This document shows positions 76 through 64,000 of a stretch of DNA of 64,000 nucleotides, one piece after another; position 1 is the first letter of the stretch; every line of letters starts with the position of its first letter. The notes beneath the pieces were generated by a model. It was given only the letters and a program-made list of their open reading frames with translations. It was not told where the DNA came from and did not search any database. The stretch spans positions 242,668,001 to 242,732,000 of the forward strand of contig OZ024742.1 in the NCBI GenBank assembly GCA_964016885.1, read 5' to 3'. This DNA comes from Eledone cirrhosa. Its lineage: Eukaryota. Position numbers and translations under genes: made by a program.

Positions 76-3000
76 TTCATTCTTAAGCCACGCAATGCTC
101 ACATTAAGGAACCACTCATGATAATAACAATTTTAAAAAAAACAACAAAAAGAAAACCCCGTGACCAAGAAATACCGGGATGGCGGCCGGCGGGGAATAG
201 CCATGTCTCTAGGGGAGAACGACCCCTCTAGTCTTGGTTGACACTCGTTCTAGAAGTGGTAACACGAAATGATTACCCCTTGGCGGATAAGGATAAAACG
301 CGACAAAATAAAGTAGATGTCTAATGATGAAATCTCATACCGGATCGGCCGTCACCCGGGTAAAAAAGGGCCGCGTCCCTCAGAGAGGAACCAGACTGGG
401 GTCGAAAAATCAGCTAATGGTTCAAACCTTCCCATCACTTCGGAGCTGGAGACCTCCCATAACCGGAATACTCCTACTGTTGGCCCTCCATGCTCACCAC
501 CAAGAAATCCAAAGAAAAAGAGAGAAAAATGGTCAAGGGAAGATAATAAAGAAGTCCTTGAGGCTTTCTACACTGCCATGTACTACCCATCAAATACATC
601 GAATACAGAACAAACATATATCAACTGGAAAAAGAAACATCCCGAAAACAGATGCTATATTGACAGTAACAAACTAGCCAATATACGAAGAAATATTGTA
701 AGAAAAAAGTTACTAACTGATATAGAAATTGATCAGATCAAGCTGGTAGCACAAAGTCAGCGAAGGGAAAATGAAGCATGTGTCAGTGAAAACGAGGTAA
801 ACTGTAACACTTCGAATCCCAGGGTTGGGGCGGAATCACTGGCAACAGAACAAATTAAAGAAAGGAGCGAAAAAGTGGAGGGAGTGCATGCTCAGGATGA
901 AACTCCAAATGAAAATAATGAGATCGTAAATGATAAAGAAATGAATGAGAATGAACTTGCCAACTTGAAGGATGAAATTATGATCGAATGGATGAAAATG
1001 AAAGAATCTGACATGGGGGAACGAGACACCCTCCCTAAGATCCAGAACTCCAAACAGAACCAAAAGATAATACACAAGACTAACATAATTCTCAAAAACA
1101 TTATCATCACAAACAAACTAAACATTACTGACTTAAATCATCTCTATTATGCATCGGCTAAAGTCACCACTCACTTATGTGGAGTGAAGATGAAAAAACA
1201 AAGGAATTCCCACAAGAAATCTACTTGGCAAGATAACATCAATCGCCAAATAAACCTTCTCCGATCTGACATAGAAATTTTAACAAACTATAAAGTAGGT
1301 GAACATGTTAAACAAACTAAACTTAGAAAATTGAAAAAAAAGTACAGTATAAGATCAACATGTGACATAGACATGCTGATAGAAACAATCAAGCAAAAAG
1401 TGTCGGCCAAAGCTGCTCGTATAAGGCGCTTTGAAAAACGATCTAGATTCTATAAGGACAATAATATGTTCAAAAACAACCAAAGAAACTTCTACAGAAA
1501 AATTGGTAAGTCAACAGTAACTGCTAAATCAATACCACCCAAGGAGGAAGTGCAAGAATTCTGGGAAAAGATCTGGGCCGAAGAAAAAGTTCATAACATA
1601 CATGCCCCATGGATAGACAGACAAATGAAAGAAACAGCTCACCTTGAAGAACAAACATGGGGAAATATAACAGTTGAACAGCTACGCTTGGCTCTAAGAA
1701 AAACCAGCAAATGGAAATCCCCAGGAAAAGACAAAATACAAAACTTTTGGATAAATGCCTTCACAGAGTCTCATGAGCTGTTAGCCCAACTTTACAATGA
1801 AATAGTTAAGGAGCCAGAAAAGATACCATCATGGCTAGTTAACGGCATTACATTCCTGCTACCGAAGAATGATGAGACAAACAATCCCAAAAATTACAGA
1901 CCGATAACCTGCTTGACCACAATGTATAAAATTTTAACATCAGTCCTAACTGAATACACATATGACCACCTGATAACAAATGATCTATTTCCCATTGAGC
2001 AGAAAGGGTGTAAACGAGGCTCATATGGCTGTAAGGATCAGCTTCTGGTTAACAAAATGATACTGGAAGATTGTCATAATAGACACAAAAATCTATCGAT
2101 TGCTTGGATAGATTATAAAAAAGCATTTGATAGTTTGCCACACAGTTGGATTGAAAAATGTTTAGAGATTTTCAAAATATCCCCCGTTGTCAGGAGGTTT
2201 TTGTCATTCGGTATGAGGACATGGAGAACGACACTCCTTTTGAATAGTGAAACAAAATCACTGGAAGCTGGAGAAGTTAACATTAATTGTGGAATTTTTC
2301 AGGGTGACTCTTTATCACCGCTTTTATTCTACATCGCACTTATACCATTAAGTAAAATGCTCAATGAAACAAAACATGGATATAGAGTCTATGACAAAAC
2401 CATTAATCACCTGTTCTACATGGATGACCTGAAACTATTTGCAAAAAATGATGAACAATTGCAAGGGCTATTATCCACTGTGAAGCAGTTCAGTGATGAC
2501 ATTAAAATGGAGTTTGGACTGGATAAATGCGCCAAAGCAACGTTCACCAGAGGAAAGCTGCTGAAGAGTTCAGACATTAATCTTGATCGGGGGAACGTGA
2601 TAAGAGAGCTTGATCAAGAACAAACTTACAAATATCTAGGTGTTTGTGAAGGAGACGGAATCAAGCACTCGACAATGAGGGAAAGGATAAGGAAGGAATG
2701 TTACCGCAGAGTCAGAGCAATCTTAAGAACGGAATTGAATGCAAGGAATAGGATCGATGCCATAAACACGCTTGCCATACCAGTAGTAACCTACAGTTAC
2801 AATGTCATCAACTGGTCAAGCACAGAGATCCGTAGGTTCGATACAAAAATCCGAAAATTCTTAACCATGCACAGAATGCATCACCCTAAGGCAGACATAG
2901 ATAGAATATATCTCCCTAGGAAAGAAGGAGGACGTGGGTTAATCCAGTTAGACATTGCGTTGAAAACTGCAACAATTGGATTATCCACATATCTAAGGGA

Positions 3001-4108
3001 ATCACATGATTGGATGATCAAACTCGTTTTGAAACACGAAAGCACCAAAAGATCATATTCCATTACAAAAGATGCACAAAGATACAGTAATGGACTACAA
3101 ATTTCAGAAGTCCCATTTACTGCTGAAATGGAAAACACAGAAAAAGCAAAGCAGGTAAAAGTAACTGCAAAGAAAGAACTGCTACAGAAACTGGCTAAGA
3201 AATGGCAAGAAAAGCCTCTGTATGGAAAATACCCAGAGCGAGCTAACAATCCTGATGTTGACAAAACTTTAACCCATCAGTGGTTGGCATCCTCTGGACT
3301 GAAATCGGAGACTGAAGGACTGATTATATCCGCACAAGATCAGTGTCTGCCAACAAAAAATTACCAAGCCAACGTAATAAAAAATGGGTGCAGCCCATTA
3401 TGCCGTGTATGCAAAAAACAACCAGAGACCATTGACCATATAATTTCAATGTGCAGTCCTATAGCTCCAACCGAATACCTAAACAGGCATGACAGAGCTG
3501 CACAATACATACATTGGATAATGTGTAAGCATTTTGACCTGCCCCATCAAAAGAATTGGTGGGAGCATCAACCACCTCCCATACTTGAAAAAGATCACAT
3601 CTCAATCTTGTGGAACTTTAGCATCCAAACAGACCGAAAAATAGATGCAAATAGACCTGATATAATATTGAAGGACTTTCAAAGGAGGGTATGCCTGCTA
3701 ATTGATATGTCTGTTCCAATAGACAAGAATGTATCTATAAAAACATTTGAAAAATTGAGCAAGTATAAGGACCTGGAGATAGAAATTGGAAAAATGTGGA
3801 AATTGAGAACTAAAACAATACCAGTGGTTGTAGGCGCTCTGGGAATGATACCTAAGGGGTCTAACGACTACTTATCGCAAATCCCAGGAAACCCGCGTAT
3901 AGGAGAAATACAAAAGATAGTACTAATGGGAACTGCCCATATACTAAGGAAGATCCTGTCAATATAAGTACATCACAAGTCTAAACACTAAGGATGCATG
4001 TGTGAATATGTATGTTCTTTCTTGAACATGGCGGACCTTGTTGTCTCTTGAGGTCACTGGTTGTGACTTGGTGATAACTCGTATAAACATAAAGCAAGAT
4101 AAATGCAA
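76..4108 (+). mobile_element. Full-length RLE-type non-LTR retrotransposon (R4/Dong-like, family Dong-A)
   Basis: ~240-nt 5' UTR, single long ORF, 140-nt 3' UTR ending ...GATAAATGCAA; short ATT/TAA run at 63-75 and (TAA)n at 4109-4125. Confidence 0.88.
317..3967 (+). CDS. Reverse transcriptase / restriction-like endonuclease protein, 1216 aa, uninterrupted
   Basis: RT motifs KSPGKD, NYRPITCL, WIDYKKAFDS, GIFQGDSLSPLLF, HLFYMDDLKL, YKYLG; CCHC finger CRVC..ETIDHIISMC; RHD; PD-(D/E)xK nuclease RPDII..LIDMSVP..K..KY. Confidence 0.95.
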   Translation: MSNDEISYRIGRHPGKKGPRPSERNQTGVEKSANGSNLPITSELETSHNRNTPTVGPPCSPPRNPKKKREKWSREDNKEVLEAFYTAMYYPSNTSNTEQTYINWKKKHPENRCYIDSNKLANIRRNIVRKKLLTDIEIDQIKLVAQSQRRENEACVSENEVNCNTSNPRVGAESLATEQIKERSEKVEGVHAQDETPNENNEIVNDKEMNENELANLKDEIMIEWMKMKESDMGERDTLPKIQNSKQNQKIIHKTNIILKNIIITNKLNITDLNHLYYASAKVTTHLCGVKMKKQRNSHKKSTWQDNINRQINLLRSDIEILTNYKVGEHVKQTKLRKLKKKYSIRSTCDIDMLIETIKQKVSAKAARIRRFEKRSRFYKDNNMFKNNQRNFYRKIGKSTVTAKSIPPKEEVQEFWEKIWAEEKVHNIHAPWIDRQMKETAHLEEQTWGNITVEQLRLALRKTSKWKSPGKDKIQNFWINAFTESHELLAQLYNEIVKEPEKIPSWLVNGITFLLPKNDETNNPKNYRPITCLTTMYKILTSVLTEYTYDHLITNDLFPIEQKGCKRGSYGCKDQLLVNKMILEDCHNRHKNLSIAWIDYKKAFDSLPHSWIEKCLEIFKISPVVRRFLSFGMRTWRTTLLLNSETKSLEAGEVNINCGIFQGDSLSPLLFYIALIPLSKMLNETKHGYRVYDKTINHLFYMDDLKLFAKNDEQLQGLLSTVKQFSDDIKMEFGLDKCAKATFTRGKLLKSSDINLDRGNVIRELDQEQTYKYLGVCEGDGIKHSTMRERIRKECYRRVRAILRTELNARNRIDAINTLAIPVVTYSYNVINWSSTEIRRFDTKIRKFLTMHRMHHPKADIDRIYLPRKEGGRGLIQLDIALKTATIGLSTYLRESHDWMIKLVLKHESTKRSYSITKDAQRYSNGLQISEVPFTAEMENTEKAKQVKVTAKKELLQKLAKKWQEKPLYGKYPERANNPDVDKTLTHQWLASSGLKSETEGLIISAQDQCLPTKNYQANVIKNGCSPLCRVCKKQPETIDHIISMCSPIAPTEYLNRHDRAAQYIHWIMCKHFDLPHQKNWWEHQPPPILEKDHISILWNFSIQTDRKIDANRPDIILKDFQRRVCLLIDMSVPIDKNVSIKTFEKLSKYKDLEIEIGKMWKLRTKTIPVVVGALGMIPKGSNDYLSQIPGNPRIGEIQKIVLMGTAHILRKILSI

Positions 4109-4379
4109 ATAATAATAATAATAATGTTTTCTTTATTAACCACAAGGGTTTACATAAAGTAGACATTAAGGACAGTACAGGACAATACAGGAGGGTACAA
4201 AAGGGCATTTCTGCGTGTAAAAAAAAACAAGAAACAGAGGATGTAATAATAGAACAATGAAAAAATTCCCCAATATGGGTGGAGACCTCCAAGAGACATT
4301 CATGGAGAAAGCCCATTAAAAAGCCACAGTGACCCTGACCACTAGGGCAAGTGCCCTCTCCCAGTTTTCCACCTTTAAT

Positions 4380-7300
4380 TTACAGACACATACTCAGAGT
4401 AGGCCCATTCACTCGGGCCATTCTTGCCTCTCTCACCCATCTTTCAGCAAAATGCTGGGAAAAGAGCACTTCCCCTCTACCCTGATTTTCCTTTTCAAAT
4501 GAAATTTGAAAATGTTAATCAGGGCATCACCGAAGAGGTAAATGCTCGTCTTCAGCCCTTTCAAACGTGTCCACCATACTATCTCTTTCGCCATGGCCAC
4601 CACGAGACAGATAAAAACTGCCTGCCCTTCCCGGCTAAAGGAAGAGGGCGGGGCAATCCTCACGATGGACTCAGCTGATAGCTGGATCCGTCCTACACGC
4701 GACAGCAGGTGTTCTACATAAACCCACAAGTCAGCAATACTCGGACACTGGACGAGTGCGTGCAGGACGGTTTCGTCGCCCTGCGCGCATCTCGGACATG
4801 CGCGGCCGACGGCACCTCCATGCCTGTAGAGTTTATCCCGAACTGGCAAAGCTCCTCGGTAGCACTGCCAGGCCAGGGATTTCTGGAAGTTGTCCATAGG
4901 CCCCGGCCCGAAATTTCTTCCGAAGAGATTGGCTAGTTGATTTTCGTCGACGCCTAGAGTTTCCCCAAGTACGTCGTCGCTCTTCCCCTACACTAATCCT
5001 CTATAGAACGCCAAGGTGGAGTTTCCACCGATCACATTGCCCGATTGGTCGAGGGCTGTGAGCGCCTGAAGACATTCCAGTCTCCAAGCGCTCCCTCTCG
5101 GTCTTCGCTTGACCCAGGACTGTAGCTTCGTCAAGGAGACGAGCTGGGGAAAGACCCGTCTAGAAAATGGCGACCACACCTGGTCAACGTCGAGGAAGAG
5201 GTGGAGATGCCGTAGCATGAACGCGTATCTGCGCATCATCAGCCACGGCATTCCCAGCTCTCCACGTAGCAGGTGTTGACAGCAGATGGACCGCCTGACC
5301 ATCGGAGCGCGTCCCTTCCACAAAAGGCGAAAGAGCAAACGCTCCAGCGCAGTCTGGCGGGGCTTAGGATAAGGTACGACGGTCAGGCGGTAGTAGATGA
5401 CGGACGCGATGTACGCGTTAGCCCCCTCCGCTAGACCTTTCAGGGATAGCTTCCTCTCCGCCCATTTCTGGGTGAGAGAAGCCAACCTGGTCGTCACCTC
5501 GTCCCAATTTTAGTCCGTCTGGAGGTCCGGACCGAAACAGACCCCGAGCAATTTAACTGGTCCGTTCGTCCAGCGCCCGACGACGCTGTTGGACGGCATG
5601 GACCTGCCTCTCCAGGTGCCGAGCTCCAGGCCCACTGACTTTTCCTGGTTGATCATTCCTCCTGTCACCGCTTCGTATTCTCTTAGTGTAGTGCCGATCG
5701 CCTCGATGTGTTTAACATTCGACACCACTATGGTGACATCATCCGCATATGCTGACACGGATCTTCCGCATCCTAGTTCGCACGGGACCCCCCTCAACGT
5801 CTCCATTTGTGCAGTAATGGCTCGAGAGTCAATACGTACAAGAGGGACGAGAGGGGACATCCTTGGCGGACCCAGCGCATGATGTTGAACGGTTCCGGAA
5901 GGTGACCGTTCACTCTCACCACAGAGCAGATGTCGCTGTGCATGGCAGCGATCTAGCCTCTGAAGACGGGCCCAAAGCCAGCCACCCTCAGGACTGCTGC
6001 TAGGTAACGATGGTCGACCCTATCGAAAGCTTTCGACTGATCTAAATTGATCAAGGACCCACCCGTGCCAGGTTCCCTAGCTACCCTCTTTACGATGTAT
6101 CGCATGAGGTGGAGGTTGTCGTGATGGATCTGTCGGGAATGGCGCACGTCTGCGCCTCTCCCACCAGACCACCAACGACAAGCGCCAACCTCTTTGCTAG
6201 CACCTTGGCCAAAATCTTGAACTCTGTGTTTAGCAGAGTTATGGGCCTGAAATTATCTATCTTATCCCCCTTGTTCGGATCCTTTCTCAGCAGCGCAAAC
6301 AGCTCCTCGGCACACAGAGCTGGGAATTCTCCCGTTCTGTTGCCAGTTGCAATAGACGTCCGCCAAGAGGCCTCCGAACAAGTCTGGCTTCTGTATGTAA
6401 AGTTCATAGAGCAGACCATCCAAACCAGGTGATTTGCACCTTGTGCAGCCAGTCATTGCCTCCCGTACTTCAGCGGCTGGTATCGGCTTTTCGCAACACT
6501 CCGCCTCAGTGGCCGAGAGCCGCGGCAGTCTGTCGAGTTAGACACTAAAGTCCATCCCCCGATCCGGCCCGCCGCTGTCCCCGAACAGCTGGGCGAAGTG
6601 TCGCTGGGAAGCTTCACACATTTGACCGGGATCGAGTAGCATGCGCCCGTCGTGGTCCACCAAAAACGGGATCGTGGCTTTGTTGCCACGATGCGCCTCT
6701 GCCACTCGGGCCCATTGAACGGCTTTCGTCCCCTCGTGTCTGAGAGCACGCACCCTAGTTCTGACAACGCAGCCTTTGTGCTTTGCATTGAAGAATTGGT
6801 CAAGGGCCAATTTCGCCGCAAGTACGTCGGTCGCAATGCCTTTGCTAAGCGCCTCGTCTAATTTTCTAACTAGTTCTCCCTCTACTCTATTTTTCTCTAT
6901 TGCTAAAGCCTTACTAAACCTAATGGATTCTATAATAATCGCTCTTTTCAGAGCAAACCACCACTTATTGTTGACGATGGCCCCAATCCACGCTCGCTTA
7001 ACTAGTTCGCTAATCCGGTCTCTGTAGGCCTTGCGCGCTGGTAAAGACGCGTTTAGCTTCCAGTAGCCGGGTCCTCGTCTATGAAGCCTATCTAAATCAA
7101 GCACACAGATCACGAATTTGTGGTCCGTGTAGCTGACTATCTTGAATTGTGGACAGCCTATGCTAGACCTATCTATTTCCCTACAAAATCCTCTATCTAG
7201 ATATGATCTGGATGACCCGATACGGTTTGTCCAAGTCCACATTGGCACATTCGGGAAATCCAATCGGTACCTGTCAGACAGTTCAAAACGCCTGAGCAGG

Positions 7301-7799
7301 TTGGTGAGGCTCTTGCACCATCCTCCCTATCCGTTAATCCCACACAGTCCGAGCGTGCATCTAAGATCCCGTTCCAGTCGCCCACTAACACTAAAGAGCG
7401 GGACCTTCCAAGAAAGGTCTCCAGACGCCGGAAGAAATCAGGCCACCCTGCTCCTGTCGGGGCAGAGACGGCCACTAGCCTGAAAGCTTGCCCGTCTCCG
7501 CTGGTCACGTCCAGCACCACCAACTCACCTTCTGAGTCCAGGAAGATGGCCCGTATGGCGAGATCCAAACATCTCCGAAAAAGCACAGCAACTCCTCCCC
7601 CCGATCCAGGACGGCTGGGAGATGCGTACACATCGTAGCCGCCGAAGATCGGTGCGAAGGCCCGTGCTTCGGAGATTCTGGTCTCGCTGATGGCCACTAC
7701 ATCTATGTTTAGTGACCTGAGGTCGTTGAGCAGGTGGCCCTGCTTCCATGACGACCCCAAGCCACGCGCATTTATGCTGCCTATTCTGAGTGAGGTCAT
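4380..7799 (-). pseudogene. Tx1-A1 ORF2 (APE endonuclease + RT + C-terminal zinc finger), frameshifted
   Basis: SINARGL, AISET, LVGDWN, SYLDR, TDHK, YWKLN, KSPGLDGL, NFRPITLLN, LDQSKAFDRV, SAYADD, CPRC..ETVLHALVQC, spread over several ORF-track fragments. Confidence 0.9.
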
Positions 7800-7833
7800 G
7801 TTGAAATGGAGTGGAAAAGATGGGAAAGACCAC

Positions 7834-9781
7834 TTACCTTACTTCTCGTAGAGGAAGGATAGTTTCTCCATCCTTTTCACTGCTTTTGGCCTCCTCCGGA
7901 AGGATGTCCTTATAAATCCGCCTGGAGAGTCCTTGTCGGAAGTCTCCGATGTCTTTGGGGAATTTTTGTTTTAGTGTCGTGTACGTTTTCTGTGTAATGC
8001 GAGTGATTTGTATGTGTGGAGGTGGTGTGAAATTTTGGGTTGTTGTGTAGTCTTTTTCTGTGATGCTGGTGTTGTGTTGGATGTAGTGTAATAATTGGTT
8101 GTTCAAATTTAATGCTGTGTAGTGTGTATCGTTTTGGTTGTTTTGTTTTGTTTGCGTGTTGTGGGTTTGTTTCTGTTTCGCTTTTTGGTGACTTTTGTGG
8201 TGTTGGTGATGGTGGTGTTGGGGTTAATGATGGTTATGGTGTTGGTGTTTGTGGTGATGGGGTTGGTGATGCTGGTGTGGATGGCGGCATATCTATCCTA
8301 ACCTTTTTGTTTGATAGTTTATTTGTTTCCCTCTGTATTTTGTTTTTGGAGGTGGAGGAAAGAGAATTTTTTTTCTTTTTTGGTTTCTTTTTTTCTTTTT
8401 GCCTGATACTGTTTCCCACTCCTCGTCGTCACAATCTGTCTCCAGTTGTGATAGGCCGGGGACTTGAAAATCCTCCACAGGCGTTGGTTTTGGTTGTGGC
8501 GTGGTGGATGGTGTAGGAGCTGGTGCTAGTTCTGGCGCGTTGGGTGGTGGTGGTGTTGGTTTTGCTACTGTTGCTGGGATTGTTACTGTTACAGTTGCTT
8601 CTGTTGTTGCTGCTACAGTTGTTGCTGCCATTTTTGCTGCGGGTGGTGTTGATGGTTGAGTCACTGGGGTAGGTAAGAGAGGTGGCCCCAACCTTTTAGC
8701 TTGAGGGCAGAAAGCCCTTAGGTGGGTTCCTTCACCACAAACGACACACCTAGGCCTTCTGCCCTCGACGATTGCGGTGAGGTGGCTGCCGTCAGTGAGG
8801 TCTATTACCTCTGGGATCTCCTCAATGCTTTTTTGATCCGCTTGGATCAGGAGCTCCATCCCAGATCCGGACCAGTTCTCCTGCTTTTCTTTCGCTATTT
8901 CGATTATCTTGGTGTTGGCTTGGATGCCGGCGAGGACGGCAGCTATTAGCCAAGGAATTTCGATGGCCGGTGGAACGTGGCTGAGCCTGATCTTCACGAG
9001 TCTCTGGCCACAATAGCTTGGGACGAATGTGATGTCGTCACTTCTTAATGGGGCCATGGAGTGTTCTCTGGCCTCCTGTGGTGTTTCAAAGAACACGTCC
9101 ACGGTTCCATACTTCTGCCCACGTCTGATGTGGGGGTTTTTTGCCCACACATGTCCCAAAGCTTCTTGGATTTGAGACTCGGATGCCCGTTCCACTCGGC
9201 GCGATTTTATATTAATTATTCGATAAGACACGGTGCATAGGCGCCGATGCTCTATTTTATTAGGTGGGGGTGAGACTGACCCTGTACCCATCTTTCTTTA
9301 CCGTTTTTTTGGTTTCTTCTAATTCCTCCTGAGTTACCTGAAATGCTTCGCACTGTTTTGCTACTCTGGCAAAACTCAGGGTGGTTTTCTTAATGTCATT
9401 GTTGCTGTTGTTGTTATCGTTATTTTTGTTATTATTAATTTTTGTTTCAGTTGTGGTGGTGGTGGCGTCAGTGGTGTTCGGTGTGGAAGAGTTCATTTTG
9501 GTTGAATGCATTTCGATATCACGAGTTAATTTATTTTTTTCTTTTGTTTCTATTGTCGCGGTGGTGGTGGGGGTGGTGGTTGTCGCGGTGGTGGTGGTGG
9601 TGGTGGCGGCTTTAACACCTGCAGTCATTGGTAATGGTGGGAAATGAATGTCTGCCTGAGACAAATTTAAAATATTGCTACTGCTTATATCTTTAGTGTT
9701 GGCAAACGTAGTAATATTTACAATGGTGGTGTCGGTGTGAGGTGTTAGTTTGGGAGAAAGGATTGACTCTGAATCAGCCAT
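7834..9781 (-). pseudogene. Tx1-A1 ORF1 (zinc-knuckle RNA-binding protein), frameshifted
   Basis: Fragments 9260-9781, 8293-9291 and 7834-8106; CCHC knuckle CVVCGEGTHLRAFC; T/P-rich linkers. Confidence 0.8.
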
Positions 9782-27255: not shown

Positions 27256-28733
27256 CAACCTGTGCCCTACAAGACCAGCAAGAGGGGGAACACCTACCAT
27301 TACCTCAATGGCCAAGAAAACCCACACAGATAGATGGAACGGGTGGACCAGAGCCATACGGACCCCCGAAAACCACGATGAACTAAAGAAAATGAGTGCA
27401 TATGCGGTGGGGGCCAGCATAAAATTAACCCTTAAGGAACATATGTTCAAATTTAATGGAAAAACATATGCCCAAGAGGAAGGAGCAGCCATTGGTGTTA
27501 GCATTGCAGGCGACATAGCTAACTTATTCATGGTATGGTGGGTCAGTAGACTTAAACTTAAACTTAAAGAACAATTAGAATACCCCTTAACCCAGATAAT
27601 GTACTCCCGCTACGTTGATGATATAAACATCGTAGTAAAAACACCCCCACTAGAGAACAGTCAGGAATTAGAGAAAAACACAATGGAAAGCATCCAGCAA
27701 ATAGCTAACTCCATCCACCAGAGTATTAGAGTTACTATAGACTACCCAAGTAAACACTCCAACCATCGATTACCTGTACTAGACACAGAGCTCTGGTTAG
27801 ATACCATTAATAACAAAAAACAAATCCTCCATTCCCATTATGCCAAACCCATGACTTCCAAATATCTGATCCACCGAAACTCAGCTGTTTCGGACCATAC
27901 CAAAATCAACATACTGATTGCGGATTTGGTACGGCTGATGAGAAACGTGTCCCGCATGTGCAACCCCGAAGAACTAGAGAGACACATACAACACTTCATC
28001 CACCGTATGCAGTTCTCTGGTTACAATCAGAGAGATAAAATCAGAGTGTATAGAGGAGCCAGAACCAAATGGGAAAAAATGGTAAATAATGGCACAAATG
28101 GGACCTGCCCCTTGTATAGAAGCAAATTTTGGAATAGAATGGAAAGAACTAGGAATAAGGCTAATAGAATAAACTCATGGTATGATAGCAATAAATACCA
28201 GAGTGTAATGTTCATCGATACAACCCCTAGAGGTGAATTAGCTTACAAATTTAGAAGGGGCCTAGATAAACATAAACTCAATATTAAGATAGTAGAAAGA
28301 CCAGGTACCTCCATAAAAACACTTATTAGCAAGACATACTCTTTTCAAAGAGCCCCCTGTATAGATAAGAAATGTATAACCTGTAAATTAAGCCCCCATA
28401 TTAACTGTAATACTAGAAATGTAGTATATAGCATAAGATGTACTGAAGGACAATGTAGAGACAAAAACATAGTGTACATAGGTGAGACAGCTCGTAGTGT
28501 AGGGGAACGGATAAATGAACACTGGCGAGATCTTCAAGATAGAAAAGAATCATCTGTACCATGCTAAAATAGAACATAAGGGTAAATTAGAGAACATAGA
28601 AATAAAAATAGAATCTACACACAGAAAAGACGCAATGTTTAGACAAATCACAGAGGCAATAAACGTAAAAGAATTACAACCAAAATTAAATAGAAAACAT
28701 GAGTGGAACAGCAACATCACAACTTACAATTAA
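27256..28733 (+). pseudogene. PLE RT (C-terminal half) + GIY-YIG, one frameshift near 28555
   Basis: QEEGAAIG, SRYVDDI, DYP..LPVLD, YAKPM..SA, FSGY, C..C.TC..C..NVVYSI.C..YIGETARS..R..EH, RQITEAINV..LN.K.EW. Confidence 0.88.
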
Positions 28734-38171: not shown

Positions 38172-40075
38172 ATGAACGCTGCGTTCAACGATAATGGTGG
38201 TGGAGAGTCGGTAAGACTACAAAGCTCGCAGTCAACATCGTCTTCTTCCCTAGATACTATGGAGATGGAAAGACGAAATGAAAATGTAAAAACAAATTCA
38301 TATCCAAACAACACAAATGACACCAAACAGTTCAATGACAACAAAAATAACAACAACACCAATAATGATGATAAAAACAACAATGACAACAACAACAAAG
38401 AAAAAAATAAAGACAACACCAATAACACCAGCATCAAAGACAACAACAACACCAAGGAAAATACGAATAATATCAACATCGGTGACAACAAGAATAACAA
38501 CAACAATAACAACAATAATGACAACACCACCAACACGGATTCCACAAAGAAACCAAAAAGCAGAGAAAGTTCAAAAAAAGGAGGAACTGATATATCTCGA
38601 CATAACAAATGCTGAACAACTTTTAAAGGACGCTAGGAGATATGTCACTTTCGAAAAAAATGGTGCTTTCAGCATCAATTCTCCGGTAGAAATTCGCAAG
38701 GAAACTGCTCTCAAAACGATAGTTTTTAGGACAGTTTCCAATTCTACCCGAAAACCAGTCCAATTGTCACAGAAAGAAATTGACTGGTTTTCAAAAATTC
38801 AATGAATGATATTGCATTCATTCAAAGAAGCAAACTTTTTGGGAGTATTTCGGTACTCATGAAGGATCAATTGACGGCCCAAAATTACTCTGTGTCGCCA
38901 ATTGTATCCAACCTGTACACCTTTTTCCCTACATACATAGGAAAAAGGACACAAAAGATCAGAATCACGAGTGTCACACCAAAGGTGAACATATGGTGGA
39001 TACTGTGCGGCTTCATCAATTTTGATGAAGACAGAATACTGTCAGTAGGAAAGTTCCCCAGAGATGTATTCAATGGGACTAGCATTGAAGTTCTGGTGCA
39101 AATGAGCCCAGAGGGAATAGCTATGATCCTTCAACGTGTACTCCTGGACGGACTCACCTACATAAACTTTTCGGTTGAGGGTAGGCGGCCTTCATGTTAC
39201 CATTGCTTTAGCAGGGGTCACCTGAGGGCTTCCTGTCCCAAATTAATGAATAAAAAAAGGCTCTTCTGCCGATACCCATCAAAACAACACAACCACCAAC
39301 ACCACCACAACAACAACACCAACACACAAAAATAACCACAACAAACACAGTCCCACCCAACCCCCACTCCACCTAAAACCACTGCAAAATCACATACAGA
39401 CACAACAGCTCCCCAAGACATACCCCTCCCCAATCACACAGACGATACAACAGATGAGGCTATCTCGCCATCACCCAGTGAAGATGAGGGAGAACGCCAT
39501 CGCTCGAAAAGAAAGAAAAGACATCACAAAAGCAAAAAACCAGCAAACACTACCACAAACATACAACCACCAACACAAACAACAAAAACATCACAAACAA
39601 AACCCCCACCTCCTGAAAACAAAATACCTACAACAAAACGAAAGCACACACAAGAACTACAGACAAAAACAAACACAACACAAGAAAATTACACTTACAC
39701 TTACATAAACACTGAAAACAAAACACTAATGGAGACCATCACGAACGACCCTTCGGTTTTCACCGAAGGGAAAACTTTCGCCCACTCTATTAAAAATAAC
39801 AAAAAATTGAACCTAAAACTGATTAGGGTCCCTATACAAACTTATAGGTCCCTAAAAGAAACATTTGAAAAGGATGTGGGGAATTCCTGCGTGAAACCAC
39901 TTAACCGCGTCCTTCTCAAATGTCTCCTCACCCCAGACACCCCCATCCCACCAGACCCCACCCCACTAAACATCTCCGTCCCCACCCCGCCGGAAACCAC
40001 CACCCACTCAGACAACCCCCCAACACCCCCATGGAAATCGTGCAGCCTGGTCCCCAGGAGACGAAGAGTGAGTGA
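38172..40075 (+). pseudogene. Tx1-B1 ORF1, frameshifted
   Basis: Fragments homologous to the intact ORF1 at 44003-45772. Confidence 0.8.
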
Positions 40076-40106
40076 TCTCTTCCTCTTTTAACTTTTCAGC
40101 ACCAAC

Positions 40107-43100
40107 ATGGCCAATAGAAGAGTTGGATGTGTGAACGTACGCGGCCTGGGAATGCCCTGCAAACAGGGCAAACTCTTAAACGACATCAGGTCGCACAGTA
40201 TGGATGTGGTAGCCATTTGCGAGTCCAGGATCCACAGCGAGCGACAGCTGGCCCCCATCTTCGATGACTTTGACATCTACGCATCTCTCTGTCAACCGGG
40301 GGGTGGGGGCGGAGTTGCCGTTTTGCTGCGGAAACACCTGGGCCTCGTAACACAGACGGTACATCTGGACCCGGAGGGTCGACTGGTGGTCCTAGACGTT
40401 GACGGTAGTGAAGGTGGAGCCTTCAGGCTGGTGGCTGCATAATCCCCATCCGCGACACCACGGCCAGACTTCTTCAAACGTCTAGAGACTTTTCTGGGAA
40501 CGTCCCGCTCCTTGCTTTTAGTGGAGGACTGGAATGGAATCCTAGATGCACGTTGGGACTATGTGGGAGCATGTCCCGATAAATGGGAGTGTAACAGCCT
40601 CAAATAGTTAATCGACCGATTTGACTTGACCGATAGATATCGACTAGATTTTCCGACTGTGCCACTGAGGACGTGGACTAATCGTAGCGGAACATCTAGA
40701 TCGTACCTAGATAGGGTTCTAGTTAGAAATAAGGATAGGGACATGTTAAGCTGTTCACAAATGTTCATGGTTGCCTATTCAGATCACAAACTAGTGACCT
40801 GCATGGCCAACCTTGATAGAACCCATAGACAAGGACCCGGCTACTGGAAGCTGAACTTGTCGTTACCGACAAGCAAAGCCTACAGTAGACGGATTAGCAC
40901 TTTAGTTAAACAGCACTTGACAGGGGCCATTGTCAACAACAGATGGTGGTACTCTCTCAAGAGGGCAGTTAGATTAGACTCGTTAGTTTTTAGTAAAGAA
41001 TTAGCGTTAGATAGAAATAGAACCGAGAAGGAACTGGTAGATAAAGTAGAAGAGGCAATTAGAAATGGCAACGTAGCCAGCGTGCTAGCAACGAGAACGG
41101 CCTTGGACCAGTTCTTCGACGCAAAGCAGGAGGGCTTCGTTGTCAGAAGCAAAATACGTGCTCTGGGAAACGAGGGAGCCAAAGCTGTTAGCTGGGCCCG
41201 AGTGATGGAGACAAAAAGTGGCAACAAGTCCACGATTCGGTCTTTGAAGGACCAAAACGAAAGCCTGATACGTGAGCCGAAGCAGATGTGTGCGGCCTTT
41301 CAGCGGCACTTTGCTCAACTATTCGGGCGGGGCGGCACGGTTGGAGGGGCTATGGATTTCGGTCTTTACCTCGACGGCCTACCGCGACTCTCGGACAGCG
41401 AGGCAAAGTTCTGCGAAAAGCCGATTTCAGCCTCTGAGATAGGGGACGCGCTGAGCCAATGCGGCAAACGCAAATCTCCAGGTCTCCACGGTCTACCCTA
41501 CGAATTTTACGTAGCAATGCCGGACTTATTCTCCGGTCTCCTGGAAGCGGTCTACTGCAACTGGCAACAGAACGGGAGAATTCCCAGTTCTGTAACCGGG
41601 GGCGTGGTCACACTAGTCAGGAAGGACGAGAATAAGGGGGATGACATAGGCAACTTCCGGCCCATAACTCTGCTAAACACAGAGTTACAGATTTGGGCCA
41701 AGGTGTTGGCAAAGAGGCTGGCGCTTGTCGTCAAGAACCTGGTGGGAGAAGCGCAGACATGCGCAATCCCGACCAGGTCCATACACGACAACCTCCACCT
41801 CATGCGATACATCATAGAGAGGGTATGGTGTAAACCCGGCTTCGGTGGGGCCCTGATCAACTTGGATCAGTCTAAGGCTTTCGATAGGGTTGACCATCGT
41901 TACCTGGATGCGGTGCTCGAGGCGGCAGGCTTCGGACCCGTGTTCAGGGGCTGGATTGCTGCAATGCACAACAGCAACATCTGCTCAAGCGTCAAGGTGA
42001 ACGGCTACCTCTCGGAGCCGTTCCATATTACGCGATCTATTCGACAGGGATGCCCTCTCTCCTCCCTTCTGTACGTACTGACTCTCGAGCCACTACTGCG
42101 GAAGTTGGAGCTATTGCAGGGCATCCCTCTGGAACCGGGACTGCGGAAAGCGGCGTCGGCCTACGCCGACGACGTGGCAGAAATGGTGTCGAGCGCCTCG
42201 CAAATCGAGGAGGTCGGCACCTTACTGAAGGAATACGAAAGTTTCACAGGAGCGAAGCTGAACCGGGACAAGTCCATCGGTTTGCAACTCGGATCATGGA
42301 GAGGCAAACCGATGCCTTCCGATGGCGTCGTCGGACGCTGGACGGAAGGACCGGTAAAGCTGCTCGGGGTCTGGTTTGGTCCGGACCTCCGGGTGGAGAA
42401 GAACTGGAACGAAGTGACGGCCAAGGTGTTTGCATTCACGCAGAAGTGGGCCGACTGCAAACTATCCTTGAAAGGTCGAGCGGAGGTGGAGAACACTTTT
42501 ATAGCGTCCGCCATCTACTACCGCTTGACCGTCGTGCCTTGTCCAGCCAAAACGCTCGCCAAAATGGAGCGTGCGCTCTTCCAATTCCTTTGGAAGAGGC
42601 GGGCTCCTTTGGTGAGAAGATCCATCTGCTACCAACACCCTTCTAACGGAGGGCTGGGGATGCCGTGGTTGACGATGCGCAAACACGCGCTCAGGCTGCG
42701 GCATCTCTACGTATTCCTCACCGGACAACCGGTGTAGGCCCCGTTCGTGAGGCGAGCCTTCCCACGACTCGTCTCGCTGACCGTGCTGCAGTCCTGGGTC
42801 AAGCAAAGACCGAGAAAAATGGGCGACTGGCACATCGAATGTGCTCAGGCGCTCACAGCCCTCTGGCAGGCGGACCTGGCGATCAGTGGAGACGCCACTT
42901 CGTCATTCTATAGAGGGTTGATCCGCAGCAAGTGCGACGACGCGCTCCGTGAAACTCTAGGCGTAGAGGAAGATGAACTGGCCAGTCTGTTCGGTAGGAC
43001 CTTCTGCCCGGGACCGATGGACAACTTCCAAAAGTCCCTGGCCTGGCAGTGCTACCGAGGAGCTCTACCAGTTCGAGACAAGCTCTACAGACATGGGCGC

Positions 43101-43542
43101 CCGGGCAGGGACCCCCCTGCAAAAAAGATCTGTCCGAGATGCGTGCGTAATGAAGAAACCGTCGCGCACGTATTCATACACTGTCCGGGCGTCACTGACC
43201 TGTGGGGCTATGTAGAACGACTATTGTCGCGGGTGGGACCAATCCGGTTGACCACCGAGTCCATTGTCATGATCAAACCGCCACCATCCTTCAAAAACGA
43301 AGGAGAGGCGGTTTTCCTTTGTGTGATAGCTATGGCGAAAGGGGTTGTATGGTGGACAAGGTTGAAAGGGCTGAGGTCAGACACTTTCTCTCCGGTCAAC
43401 AACTGATTCTTTTTTTCAAATACCACTTTGGAAGAAGAATCAGGATGGAGAGAGAGGTGCTGTACCCCAGCAAGTTTTATGAAAGGTGGGTGAAAGTGGC
43501 GAGAATGGCCCGAGTGGGCCTTCTCTCTATATCAGCCTGTAG
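40107..43542 (+). pseudogene. Tx1-B1 ORF2 (APE-RT-zf) with stops and frameshifts
   Basis: NVRGL, SYLDR, SDHK, NFRPITLLN, RQGCPLS, AYADD, CPRC..H..HC. Confidence 0.9.
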
Positions 43543-44002
43543 GTTGAGGAAAAGGAGGAGGAGAGGAAAGGAGTACAAACTCTTCGTACTCCTGGAGATG
43601 AGGGTTTCACATTTTTTCGCGGGTATGTGTTACCCATATGAACTGTCTCCCCCTATTGGGGAAAATCGACTAATTTTTTACATTGCATTTGTCATAACAT
43701 TTTACACGTTTTTATTGTATGTAAACTTCCCCCTTTGTATTTGTCCCCTTCTTTTGTGCCCCTGTGGCTAATAAAGAAACATATCTATCTCGTATAGTAT
43801 AGACGCGTATAACATCGGCTCCTGCCTTTTTGAATTTTTACCCATTGACAGTAAGTGTTTGTCTCTTTATTGTGTTGTCTTCGTGCCTTTTAACCACCCG
43901 GCTAGGTCTGTAGACGGGTGGTCATCGTATTTTTACCCCTTTTGGGGATAAAAACTACTCCAAAATATTTTTGCTGACTCACAATGGTAAAAAGTTGACG
44001 CC

Positions 44003-45772
44003 ATGTCTGCAGCACGTGTGGACGATAACGCCACGCTCACTAAGGAAGAAGAGAGAAAGAAGCAAGCGGTACAAAGCGTTTTGCTTTCTCGCGTCAACGT
44101 TGTAAAAGACTTGGTAAACGGCGATATGCCAGACAAACAATTAAATACGGGTGCAAACCCAATTTATTACAACTCAAACACTAACAATGACAAAACCAAC
44201 ACACCAAACGAGAAAGACAACAACAACAAAAATGAAAACAACTCAAATTACGAGAAACAAAACAATTCAAACACCAACAACGAAAACAAAATATCTTTTC
44301 CACAGACTGCTAAAATATCAGTCACATATGTGCTTGAGGATATATCAAATGCAAAAGAAATGCTTGAAAAAGCAAAAAAATATGTATCGTTTAGCGAAAA
44401 TGGATCTTTTTCCATCAATTCGCCCCCAGAACTAAAAAAACAGACGGAATTACGAACTGTTGTATTCCGTACAATTGCAAACAAAACAAAAAAACCAGCA
44501 CAACCATCTCAAGCTGAAATTCAGTTAGTCCTGAAAGAGGCTATGAAAGACATTATTTTCATACAAAAGGATAAACTCTATGGCAGTTTATCCATATTGA
44601 TGAAAGACGAATTGGCGACGAAAAAATACTCTGTGTCGCCAATTCGTTCCACACATTACACCTTTTTCCCCACCTACATGGGTAAAAAAAACCAAAGAAT
44701 ATGGATAACCACCATCACCCCAAACATAAATTACTGGTGGTTACTAACCGGTTTCCTCAACTTAGACGAGGATAACCTTATATCAATAGGGAAGGCATCC
44801 GGCGACGCGTTCAGTGGAACGAGCATTGAAGTTCTGGCCCAAATAAGGCCAGAACGTATCGCCCAAATCCCTGAGCGCGTCATGCTGGATTACCGTACCC
44901 ACCTCAACATTATTGTGGAGGGTAGGCGTCCCTCCTGTTACCTCTGTGGCAATAGAGGTCACCTGAGGGCTGCCTGTCCCCAGCTCACACCGAAAAAACC
45001 ATTGCTACCAACACCCCAACAACCAACACCCACACCTCCCCAACAACAACAACAAAAACAACCACAACAACAACAACAAAAACCAACAACACCACCACAA
45101 CAACAACAACAAATACGTGAAAAAACAACACAGAACACTGTCCCACCCAAAACAAATACAAAATCACACACACCGCAAACACTACCAGAAAACATACCCC
45201 TCCCACCCAACAAGGAAGACGAACACCTTTCGTCGCAAGACGAAAAAGATCCCTTCCAAATAGTAAAAAGAAAGAAGAGGAGGCGCACCACAGACACACT
45301 TATTAACATTAACCCTCCCCAAGAGAAAACAAACTATATACAAACCACCCCTCCCCGTCACACAACACTAACTGCTACGCAAAAAAAGACTTTACAATAT
45401 ACATACATGAACACAAACAAAGAACTAATGAACACAATTTCGTCAAACCCTTCGGTCCAAACTGAAGGGCCCAACTTTCTAACTGCTGTGGGACTACCTC
45501 ATTTACAAATGATTAAAGTCCCAATGAACTTATACAAAACGTTGAAAATAAATTTCACGGAGGACGTGGGCCGTCCCTGCTCCAAGCCAATCAACCGGGT
45601 CCTCCTAAAAAATTTCCCCACCCTCTACCCAGACACCCACTCAACCACAAACACCCCAACCCCACAACACACTGATGCCCCTACACTTCCACAAACCACC
45701 ACCCCACCCAACAACCCATCCCCAACCCTCATGGAAATTGAGCAGCCCGCTCCCCGGGACGCAGAGTGGTAA
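44003..45772 (+). CDS. Tx1-B2 ORF1p, 589 aa, intact
   Basis: Open frame; CYLCGNRGHLRAAC knuckle; N- and Q/P/T-rich linkers; basic NLS-like KRKKRRR. Confidence 0.85.
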   Translation: MSAARVDDNATLTKEEERKKQAVQSVLLSRVNVVKDLVNGDMPDKQLNTGANPIYYNSNTNNDKTNTPNEKDNNNKNENNSNYEKQNNSNTNNENKISFPQTAKISVTYVLEDISNAKEMLEKAKKYVSFSENGSFSINSPPELKKQTELRTVVFRTIANKTKKPAQPSQAEIQLVLKEAMKDIIFIQKDKLYGSLSILMKDELATKKYSVSPIRSTHYTFFPTYMGKKNQRIWITTITPNINYWWLLTGFLNLDEDNLISIGKASGDAFSGTSIEVLAQIRPERIAQIPERVMLDYRTHLNIIVEGRRPSCYLCGNRGHLRAACPQLTPKKPLLPTPQQPTPTPPQQQQQKQPQQQQQKPTTPPQQQQQIREKTTQNTVPPKTNTKSHTPQTLPENIPLPPNKEDEHLSSQDEKDPFQIVKRKKRRRTTDTLININPPQEKTNYIQTTPPRHTTLTATQKKTLQYTYMNTNKELMNTISSNPSVQTEGPNFLTAVGLPHLQMIKVPMNLYKTLKINFTEDVGRPCSKPINRVLLKNFPTLYPDTHSTTNTPTPQHTDAPTLPQTTTPPNNPSPTLMEIEQPAPRDAEW

Positions 45773-45796
45773 GTGCCTTTTCTCCTTACCACCAAC

Positions 45797-48700: not shown

Positions 48701-48955
48701 AAAAATGAAGGAGAGGCGGCGTTTCTGTGCGTAAAAGCCATGGTGAAAGAGGTTGTATGGTGGACGCGTCTGAAAGGACTGAGGTCAGGCACCTTTCTCT
48801 CTGGCCAACAACTGGTCCGTTTCTTCCGATATCATTTCGGAAGAAGGATCAGGATGGAGAGAGAGGTGCTCCACCCCAGTCGTTTTTATGAAAGGTGGGT
48901 GAAAGTGGCGAGAATGGCCCGTGTGAATGGGCCTTCTCTTTACATCAGCCTGTAG
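45797..48955 (+). pseudogene. Tx1-B2 ORF2 with internal deletion of the endonuclease C-terminus
   Basis: Jumps at ~46270 over the region corresponding to B1 ~40580-40860 (YLDR/SDHK lost); RT motif altered to AYADH. Confidence 0.88.
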
Positions 48956-49320
48956 GTGGAAAAGAGGAAGGAACGAGTGAGCACCCTCTCTCTGTGCTGC
49001 TGAGGAGAAGGGGTTGCACACTTTTTTCGGGGGGGTGTGCGACCTCCCAAACGCTCTCTCCCTATTGAGGACTTTATTGTTAATTTTATATTTGTTATTT
49101 GTTTTCTTTACTCGCCTTTTTGTGTAAACTCCCCCCATTGTACTTGTCCCACTTTTTGATGCCCTGCTGGCAAATAAAAAAAAACATATCTATCTATAAT
49201 AGAAGGAAAGGGCAGGCAGTTTATCTGCCTGGTAGTCATGCCGAAAGAGGTCGCGTAGTGGACAGGTCTGAAAGGGTTAAAGACAAGCACTTTCCTCTTC
49301 GGCGAAGCGGTGATTAACTT

Positions 49321-58757: not shown

Positions 58758-58983
58758 GTTTACATAAAGTAGACATTAAGGACAGTACAGGACAATACAG
58801 GACGGTACAAATGGGCATTTCTGCGTGTAAAAAACAAAAGCAAAGGATGTAACAAAAAATAACAATGAAATATTCCCCAATAGGGGGAGACTTCCGAGGG
58901 ACATTTGTGGCGAAAGCCCATTAAAAGGCCACAGTGACACTGACCACCAGGGCAAGTGCCCTCTCCCAGTTGTCCACCTTTAA

Positions 58984-62243: not shown

Positions 62244-62277
62244 GTTGAAATGGAGTGGAAAAGATGGGAAAGACCAC

Positions 62278-64000
62278 TTACCTTACTTCTCGTAGAGGAA
62301 GGATGGTTTCTCCATCCCTTGTCACTTGATTGTCCGGTGAAGGCACCGTTGAATCGTCCCTTCGGCTAGTCGTCGGCTCTTCTGTGAGTATATCCGAATA
62401 TACTCTCCGGTTGAGTGTCCCCCTAGGTCTCTGAAATCACCAACTAGGTTGGGGAATTTCATTTTAGTGTTTGTGTATTGTTTCTGTGCTATTCTTAGTA
62501 TTCTTATGTTCGTTGGTGTTTTGATTGGTGCTGGTATTATGTAGTCGTGCTGTGAAATGTCTGTGTGTTCAATTATGTAAGTCATTAGTTTCTTGTTGTG
62601 TGTATTTATTGCTGTGCATTTCTTTTTCTGGGGGTGGGGTGTGGTTCTGATATTTTCTTGTCGTTGTTGCTGGGTGTGTGTGTTTTGTTGTTGTGTTTGC
62701 GATGTTGGTGCTTGTGGTGGTGGTGTTGAAGGTGTTGTTGTTGTTGGCGGTGGAGTTGCCGCCGGTGGTGATGGTGGTGCTAGTGTGGGTTGTGATGGTG
62801 TTGGTGGTGTTGCTGCTATAAGTCTCTTTGCAGTAGCCTTTACCCTTTTTTCATTTCTTCCCTCCCTTTTCGAAGGCGACGATGCGCTGCTTCTGCGTTT
62901 GTGCCTTCTTGCGACCTTTTGCCATCCCTCTCCCACCTCATACTCCATGTCTGATTCTGTGAGGTCGGGGAGGGGTACCAGCTCCACTCTTTCACTTGTT
63001 CTTGTTGGTGATGGTTGCAGTGGAGTCTCTGTTGCAGCTGCAGTTGGTATTACTGTTGTTGTTGTTAATACTTCCACTGCTGCTGCTGTTCTTGATTTCC
63101 GTGGCGCGGGTAGGGTACAACCGACCTATCCTTCCTGCTTTCCGCCTGTCTTGTTGCTGGTAGCAATGGAGCCGGTTTCGGAAGGAGGGGTGTTTTCTCC
63201 TTTCTCAGGGTCTTCTCATTGCAGAAGGCCCTGAGGTGAGGCTTCGACCCACAGCGAAAGCATTTCGGGCGTTTGCCCTCAACACTTATGGGCTGTTGAG
63301 TGCCGTTATCGAAGTCTATCACATCCGGGATAGTTTCGATGCACTCCTGGTTGGTTTGAATTAACATCTCAATAGAGGTGCCTACCCAATCTTCTCGTAC
63401 TTTTTTCTGTACTTGCAGTACAGTTGTTTTGTCCTCGATTCCGACGAGGACAGACGCGACCAACCAAGAAGGGGCCATCTCGGGTAGGACGTGGGTCAGT
63501 TTGACCCTCATAATTTTTTCTCCGCAGTAGGAGGGCACCAACACCATTTCCTCTCTCCTTAGGGTCACTAAGGATTGAGCCTTTTCCTCCTGGGGTGTGG
63601 TAAAAAGCAAGTCCACGGTGGCATATTTCTTGCCTCGGGTGATATGCGTTTTCCGCTTCCACACAGACCCTAAGACTTTTTGTATTTGAGCCTCTGTGGC
63701 TCTTTCAACCCTACGGGATTTTGTGCTTACTGTGCGGTACGTGACCGTACAGTGCTATTGGGTTTCGAAATATTTTTCGGCTACCTTGCAGATTGCTCGG
63801 TGTCCGGTTTTCGTCACCATCTTCTTTGCTTCCTGTAATTCCTCATTTGTTATAAGGATGGTTTCCAGGTTCTTTGCGATACCTGCAAACGAGATTGGTT
63901 TTTCTTTCTTGTTGTTGTTGTTGTCGTCAGAGCTGCTGTTACTTTTGTTGTTGCTGCTGGTACTACGACTGCCGCCGCTGTTGATGTGGTTGTTGTTGTT
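62278..64000 (-). pseudogene. Tx1-A2 ORF1, frameshifted, incomplete
   Basis: Fragments 63065-63664 and 62322-63077 homologous to A1 ORF1. Confidence 0.8.

Follow-up and report, generated by a model that had tools for sequence, protein, structure and literature searches.

The L1/Tx1-like LINEs analysed here carry, at the boundary between ORF1 and ORF2, a 5′ splice donor which, judged by comparison among copies and families, is real and under selection. The explanation that we favour, and hold with about as much confidence as doubt, is that of a U1-binding, splice-competent donor that is masked in the finished RNA by predicted base pairing, and that does not mark the start of an ORF2 intron. 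LINE RNAs must stay unspliced and reach the cytoplasm, and an unused donor should oppose both, given that an unused 5′ splice-site motif blocks export and leads to nuclear retention in the accessible part of PMC4380460. A lineage of thousands of copies with a near-perfect inter-ORF donor consequently requires an explanation.

The window, a 64,000-nt stretch of a 3.0-Gb host genome, contains four copies of these elements (A1, A2, B1 and B2), with the ORF2 start codon at 7799 and 62243 on the minus strand for A1 and A2, and at 40107 and 45797 on the plus strand for B1 and B2. The A and B copies share ~71% identity in ORF2, pieces of which matched PF03372 (APE endonuclease), PF00078 (RT) and PF13966 (zf-RVT); the endonuclease also matched L1 endonuclease structures, human L1 being the nearest among solved structures. 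The elements have the organization of the L1/Tx1 group, that is, an ORF2 with an N-terminal APE endonuclease, an RT and a C-terminal zinc-binding region, and a separate ORF1 5′ of it. These three regions are present in the frameshifted ORF2 of A1 (4381..7799, minus strand), which ends in TAA and lacks an AG at the stop. The ORF1 of B2 is intact (44003..45772, plus strand; 589 aa) and has one CCHC-type motif and no Pfam match; no homologous protein was found among 7,992 candidates scored. Likewise, none of 181 metagenome contigs held a relative, and the 30 loci taken from 150 matches to a zf-RVT search all fell within families already sampled (80–95%), so that none of them supplied a deep outgroup. 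Two ORFs, the second with APE endonuclease, RT and zf-RVT, are also described for Kibi and Koshi, microsatellite-targeting non-LTR retrotransposons of the Tx1 clade in the L1 group (PMC4494074). At the 3′ end, which is the end covered here, the elements studied pass into tracts of (ATT)n, (TATC)n or (TC)n, and the (ATT)n and (TATC)n ends are likened to the Kibi/Koshi type, the Tx1 placement being putative. In the accessible text of PMC4494074 we found neither a donor between the ORFs, nor pairing of the junction with the 3′ UTR, nor hybrids joined at a donor. The window also holds an intact RT ORF of another retroelement (317–3967, plus strand; 1,216 aa) and a Penelope-like fragment with an RT and a weak GIY-YIG match (27308–28567, plus strand).

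A preliminary description of the window had placed a donor motif shortly before ORF2 in all four copies, and its motifs, distances and spacers are borne out by the sequence. A1 reads AAG|GTAAGT at 7832..7840 on the minus strand (AG|GTAAGT with the hexamer at 7837–7832), and the ORF1 stop codon TAA occupies donor positions +2..+4, which places the donor in phase 2; A2, with the A-type tail, has the same AAG|GTAAGT at 62276..62284 on the minus strand (hexamer 62281–62276). On the plus strand, B2 reads GTG|GTAAGT (hexamer 45769–45774; donor to the base before the ORF2 ATG, 45766..45796) and B1 reads AGA|GTGAGT (hexamer 40068–40073, within 40065..40075). The distance to the ORF2 ATG, given as 28–39 nt, is 38 nt in A1, 38 nt in A2, 28 nt in B2 and 39 nt in B1. 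The spacers of A1, A2 and B2 contain no AG, as had been reported, and that of B1 contains TTTTCAG. Overlap of the donor with the ORF1 stop, described for all four copies, was found in the A copies and in B2; in B1 the TGA stop lies at +6..+8, outside the hexamer, and the donor is in phase 1. For the TAA at +2..+4 in A1 and B2 the frame was set by homology with the intact B2 ORF1 (A2 has the tail of A1), and for B1 by homology of the MEIVQPGPQE tail. The assignment of the copies to two divergent families did not survive: the four copies represent four families, and A2 is a hybrid. The B copies of the window carry decayed donors, and the family versions are better, namely GAG|GTAAGT for B2 (GAG|GT in 29 of 30 loci, full hexamer in 28 of 30) and AGG|GTGAGT for B1 (18 of 20 loci). 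The GT itself, whose conservation in a family consensus had been named as a check, is present in all 30 B2 loci. In the B1 spacer, 40085–40098 has a branch-like TTTAAC, a pyrimidine tract and a CAG just 5′ of the ORF2 ATG; this CAG lies too near its own donor, and could be an acceptor for an upstream one.

The same motif recurs throughout the lineage. With a pattern blind to the donor, GTRRGT was found 16–45 nt before CAACATG at 7,326 of 8,544 ORF2 starts, and the reversed-pattern control gave 0; from the base composition of the junction, G|GTRRGT is expected by chance at ~6e-5 per position. G|GTRRGT is present in all 19 family representatives, which have 66–96% identity in ORF2 and donor-to-ATG distances of 25–47 nt; these representatives, chosen with both ends available, were hand-picked, several of them from donor-containing lists. 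Two families from the donor-blind list also have a donor, CAG|GTAGGT in family E and CAG|GTAATT in L334; in E, which is absent from the second list, the gap is one base below the minimum of the pattern. Among the 19 representatives the ORF1 stop is TAA, TAG or TGA, and the donor is in phase 2 (11 by script) or phase 1 (F2 and B1 by script, C and C′ by hand), with the reservations that the script took the wrong ATG for A and that F1 and Bc1 are frameshifted copies. An explanation of the motif at the level of the protein or of the stop codon fails, since distance, stop codon and phase all change while the motif stays. The motif varies among donor-type sequences only (GTAAGT, GTGAGT, GTAGGT and GTAATT), and its core bases are retained even where they are predicted to be unpaired (F, B2 and B1). 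The preliminary description had offered a U1-binding element as its fallback, and this idea, with the binding predicted, holds up together with the conserved donor.

A candidate for the masking partner was found at the other end of ORF2. When a segment comprising the 25 nt before the donor, the donor and the spacer was tested for pairing, the 75 nt after the ORF2 stop were the best predicted partner in 11 of 12 elements, the exception having a mutated donor. Pairing energies in the 12 elements lay between −42 and −67 kcal/mol, whereas far windows had means of −25 to −32, and none of 300 shuffles reached the observed energy in any element. Across the 19 representatives, family-matched pairs averaged −59 kcal/mol compared with −48 for mismatched pairs (0 of 20,000 permutations, relatedness ignored), and sense pairing was more stable than antisense in 18 of 19, although the cognate partner ranked first in only 5 of 19 rows. 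In A1 the pyrimidine-rich spacer ending in CAAC (7800..7831, minus strand) forms the predicted 5′ strand. Its predicted partner is the purine-rich stretch that opens the 3′ UTR (4346..4372, minus strand), which would also cover the donor, with positions −1..+7 predicted to be fully paired. The corresponding predicted partners are 58951..58977 on the minus strand in A2 and, on the plus strand and including the ORF2 stop, 43536..43615 in B1 (CCTGTAG; −67 kcal/mol) and 48949..49030 in B2. Both the start codon and the stop of ORF2 lie only a few bases from the point at which the predicted helix closes, and ORF2 would therefore form the loop. Full pairing of the donor from +1 to +6 is predicted for A, H2, C, C′, E, Bb, Bb2, Bc1 and B1s, and a partly open donor for the remaining ten representatives, F, B1 and B2 among them (+2..+4 unpaired in B2). 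In minimum-energy folds of the whole RNA the helix appeared in four of eight elements (A, C′, B1 and F2), among them the sister copies of A1 (L093) and B1 (L350), and was missing from B2, B2b, E and Ba; in the folds of B2, B2b and Ba a local hairpin with the donor partly or wholly in its loop was preferred. Per-pair covariation was not shown, because positions changed on both sides still paired in 12 of 22 cases, with no excess over the slid controls (43 of 83), and the purine and pyrimidine tracts allow loose pairing in many registers. The junction/3′ UTR helix is best regarded as a prediction, supported at the level of whole segments only.

Taken together in the reading that we favour, U1 would bind the donor while ORF2 is being transcribed and would protect the RNA from early 3′-end formation. 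Once made, the 3′ UTR would pair with the spacer and the donor and displace U1, in competition with the local hairpin in B2, B2b and Ba, and the full-length, unspliced RNA could then be polyadenylated and exported. Where masking fails, for example on read-through across tandem elements, the donor would be used. U1 binding, its timing and the export step are inferred by analogy. Canonical poly(A) signals are few in ORF2 (0–2 per element). Within the 400 nt 5′ of the donor such a signal occurs in 13 of 18 representatives, against 8.8 expected from shuffles, its positions being unaligned, and no conserved poly(A) signal was found near the donor. The more ambitious form of the proposal, a full-length checkpoint in which a 3′ UTR 3.4 kb away displaces U1 and loops out ORF2, together with swaps of ORF1 between tandem elements by splicing at this donor, from which a family of over 2,400 copies arose, is put forward tentatively and is in our estimate somewhat improbable.

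The closest parallels come from LTR elements and retroviruses, as far as the accessible parts of these papers go. In the Arabidopsis Ty1/copia element EVD a conserved donor likewise ends the structural-protein region, and in its donor/shGAG RNA U1 binding at the donor has a splicing-independent role in blocking early termination (PMC5580714). EVD belongs to the LTR elements, and its intron and poly(A) site are defined and have been shown at the RNA level, whereas the elements described here are non-LTR elements known from DNA, lack a conserved acceptor and have an ORF1 with its own stop. At the major splice donor of foamy virus, U1 suppresses polyadenylation, and RNA structure that blocks U1 allows it (PMC3694450), as is predicted here; that structure is local and lies in duplicated LTRs, in contrast to a predicted partner 3.4 kb away in a non-LTR element. 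No paper reporting an inter-ORF donor or a junction-to-3′ UTR helix in LINEs was found among the sources consulted in part, which lay outside subscription journals, Repbase reports and supplements, and the main text of PMC13282606 contains neither "splic" nor "ORF1". If U1 binding and its release by the 3′ UTR are true, they would constitute a LINE counterpart of retroviral donor control.

The original interpretation was that the donor opens an intron equal to ORF2, with an AG at the ORF2 stop as acceptor, yielding an ORF1-only mRNA in which ORF1 receives a new tail; its conserved donor and its U1-binding fallback stand, the intron does not. In a developed form, where the helix acts as the switch for this splice, we consider it unlikely. 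The CCTGTAG named as acceptor in the B copies is there, with its last base at 43542 and 48955, and 29 of 30 B2 copies retain CCTGTAG|G, but as an acceptor it reduces to the TAG stop codon that 16 of 18 representatives have in common. The weaker TAAAG|GTGG of the A copies was also found (~4373), although families A and H have TAA at the proposed acceptor. Elsewhere the context is TAG|G in B and F, and C and D, which lack a pyrimidine tract there, have TAG|T or TAG|A. By a crude pyrimidine score the ORF2-stop AG performs modestly, ranking 4th to 55th among the 241–278 AGs of each element (18 representatives). The predicted C-termini WKRGR (B2) and WKTGR (A1) do read as described; they are not a conserved product, as the donor phase differs between families and the product would differ with it, from a long tail in B2 to a Gly followed at once by a stop in B1. 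In favour of the proposal, the loop of the predicted helix coincides almost exactly with ORF2, yet the helix joins the 5′ end of the intron to the would-be exon 2, and should thereby hinder the ORF2-removing splice.

Retroposed copies precisely lacking ORF2, the genomic check suggested for this proposal, were absent: the junction was found in 0 of 1,517 B2-type copies, defined by the exact B2 15-mer before the donor, and 0 of 1,491 A-type copies, defined by an A 16-mer, copies with a mutated anchor falling outside both sets. Three patterns for departures from the B2 donor gave 1, 1 and 2 matches, all small indels with no ORF2-less junction. For the A type the three patterns gave 5, 6 and 10 overlapping matches, none at the ORF2 stop; apart from small indels they comprised an inversion, an isolated fragment and a 1.7-kb deletion, one of each. 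An RNA without ORF2 would depend on ORF2p supplied in trans and would rarely be copied into the genome, so that the missing copies weaken rather than refute a spliced mRNA. A donor-to-stop joint was not among the 15 of 210 (B2) and 15 of 610 (A1) joints listed from contigs of runs X1, X3, X4 and X5 (B2) and X1, X2, X4 and X5 (A1); the kind of these runs is unrecorded, and the absence is therefore no evidence either way. The likeness to copia gag splicing drawn in the preliminary description thus extends to the conserved 5′ splice donor and not to a conserved acceptor or spliced product, and on comparison of sequences an intron equal to ORF2 is not supported.

About equally doubtful is regular splicing from the donor to an acceptor within ORF2 or the 3′ UTR, which would produce an ORF1-only message or an ORF1–ORF2 fusion. 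The internal candidates are TTAG|TGG at ORF2 +413 and YCAG|GTC at +81. All 18 representatives have the AG at +413, whose mean crude score is the best, and the Leu codon TTA at +411..+414 is invariant in all 18, as are only 15 of 113 comparable codons. In addition, two deletions found as single copies (L392 and L230/L382) run from a donor to within 1–2 nt of an ORF2 AG, each missing an exact splice by that margin. Against this, the +413 junction is absent, though the A and B2 patterns would have caught such copies, the +81 patterns gave 4 and 1 matches of which none was a donor junction, and the phase varies between families. The A-family 3′ UTR has a strong acceptor-like site, TTTTTACACGCAG (window ~4200–4240 and 58800–58830, minus strand), which is unconserved in C, D and B. 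A mini-intron from the donor to the first AG of ORF2, giving an in-frame fusion, was also considered and rejected: no such copy was found, though the A and B2 patterns would catch it.

The single case that suggests past use of the donor is the hybrid family H, to which the window copy A2 belongs and whose ORF1 differs from that of A1. At 62324..62325 (minus strand) the ORF1 of family C′ ends exactly at the donor boundary (...CAAG|) and family A begins; C′ ...GATCAAG| is joined to the A sequence CAG|TGAAAAGG, and an additional G stands 7 nt downstream. The CAG lies in the A-type ORF1 tail (7880..7882, minus strand), immediately before the A part of H, and is a candidate cryptic acceptor with a weak pyrimidine tract. 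Five H copies including A2 are 86–95% identical to C′ up to the donor boundary, and 91–95% identical to A1 from 2–4 nt after the CAG (7882–7880). The parental pattern, consisting of the last 18 nt before the A2 junction followed by a base other than T, had 106 matches; of 30 such loci, 24 continue into the donor or a near variant and a C-type spacer (family C′) and six are hybrids. The H motif, the same 18-mer followed by T, had 2,416 exact matches, against at most 106 for the parent. Of the H loci, 25 of 25 inspected read TGAAAAGGGATG, one G more than A, and this G restores the frame of the A tail. The join duplicates a homologous ORF1 tail of ~45 nt, which sets it apart from a simple homologous crossover. 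The event is a single one, with 2 nt of AG microhomology and a purine-rich acceptor. Tandem neighbours of these elements occur (L225). The sequence of the junction suggests that H arose from a past splice, from the C′ donor to the CAG of a downstream A element; a template switch at the AG microhomology is possible. Further donor-joined hybrids were not found in Bb/Bc (11 matches), E (1), F (5) or B2 (2), the families searched (C, Ba and B1 lay outside the search, and Bb, E and F have no denominators); the matches were small indels, one unrelated match and L392.

A template switch is also the origin of H in a further alternative, where the helix is the functional unit and the donor-like sequence one of its constrained parts. 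The helix would then bring the start and the stop of ORF2 together for translation re-initiation or for cis binding of ORF2p. The closing of the helix within a few bases of both codons speaks for this alternative, as does the microhomology at the H junction, there being 11 AGs in 140 nt of sequence surrounding the C′ donor, and 13 in the last 140 nt before the A ATG. It does not account for a motif that still matches U1 where it is neither a stop codon nor predicted to be paired (B1 and F), or for variation confined to GTAAGT, GTGAGT, GTAGGT and GTAATT, and we regard the alternative as improbable, with either of the two functions. Least credible by far is neutral inheritance of a functionless Arg codon, stop and GT from a common ancestor, for although all sampled families are one lineage in one genome and outside relatives were not found, the motif stays while the donor-to-ATG distance (25 to 47 nt), the stop codon and the phase change.

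Under the favoured reading of a masked, splice-competent donor, family H would record a failure of masking. Donor use in a LINE that leaves spliced genomic copies has a precedent in the human L1 SpIREs, whose donors lie in the 5′ UTR and which the accessible part of PMC5860796 describes as evolutionary dead ends. Unlike these, family H, if spliced, is autonomous and has at least 20 times more exact motif matches than its ORF1 parent; it would represent a concrete route by which LINE families exchange ORF1. At G000:C1:4225326-4255756 and C1:55427442-55453378 the elements stand head to tail in arrays with a spacing of ~6–7 kb, an arrangement that would permit read-through between neighbours. The copy L332 combines an F-type junction with an A-type ORF2 end and 3′ UTR, and is a recombinant or a nested copy. 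In L392 (1500–1560; G000:C2:135302704), a Bb copy, the join runs from the donor boundary to ORF2 +85 and misses an exact splice by one G; among the 11 matches of that search, 7 have lost a single G at this donor. In L230 (2272–2319)/L382 (G000:C1:85684020), an H copy, the sequence passes from the donor exon and its GT into ORF2 immediately after GCGCAG, a deletion of ~1.7 kb that lies 2 nt off an exact splice.
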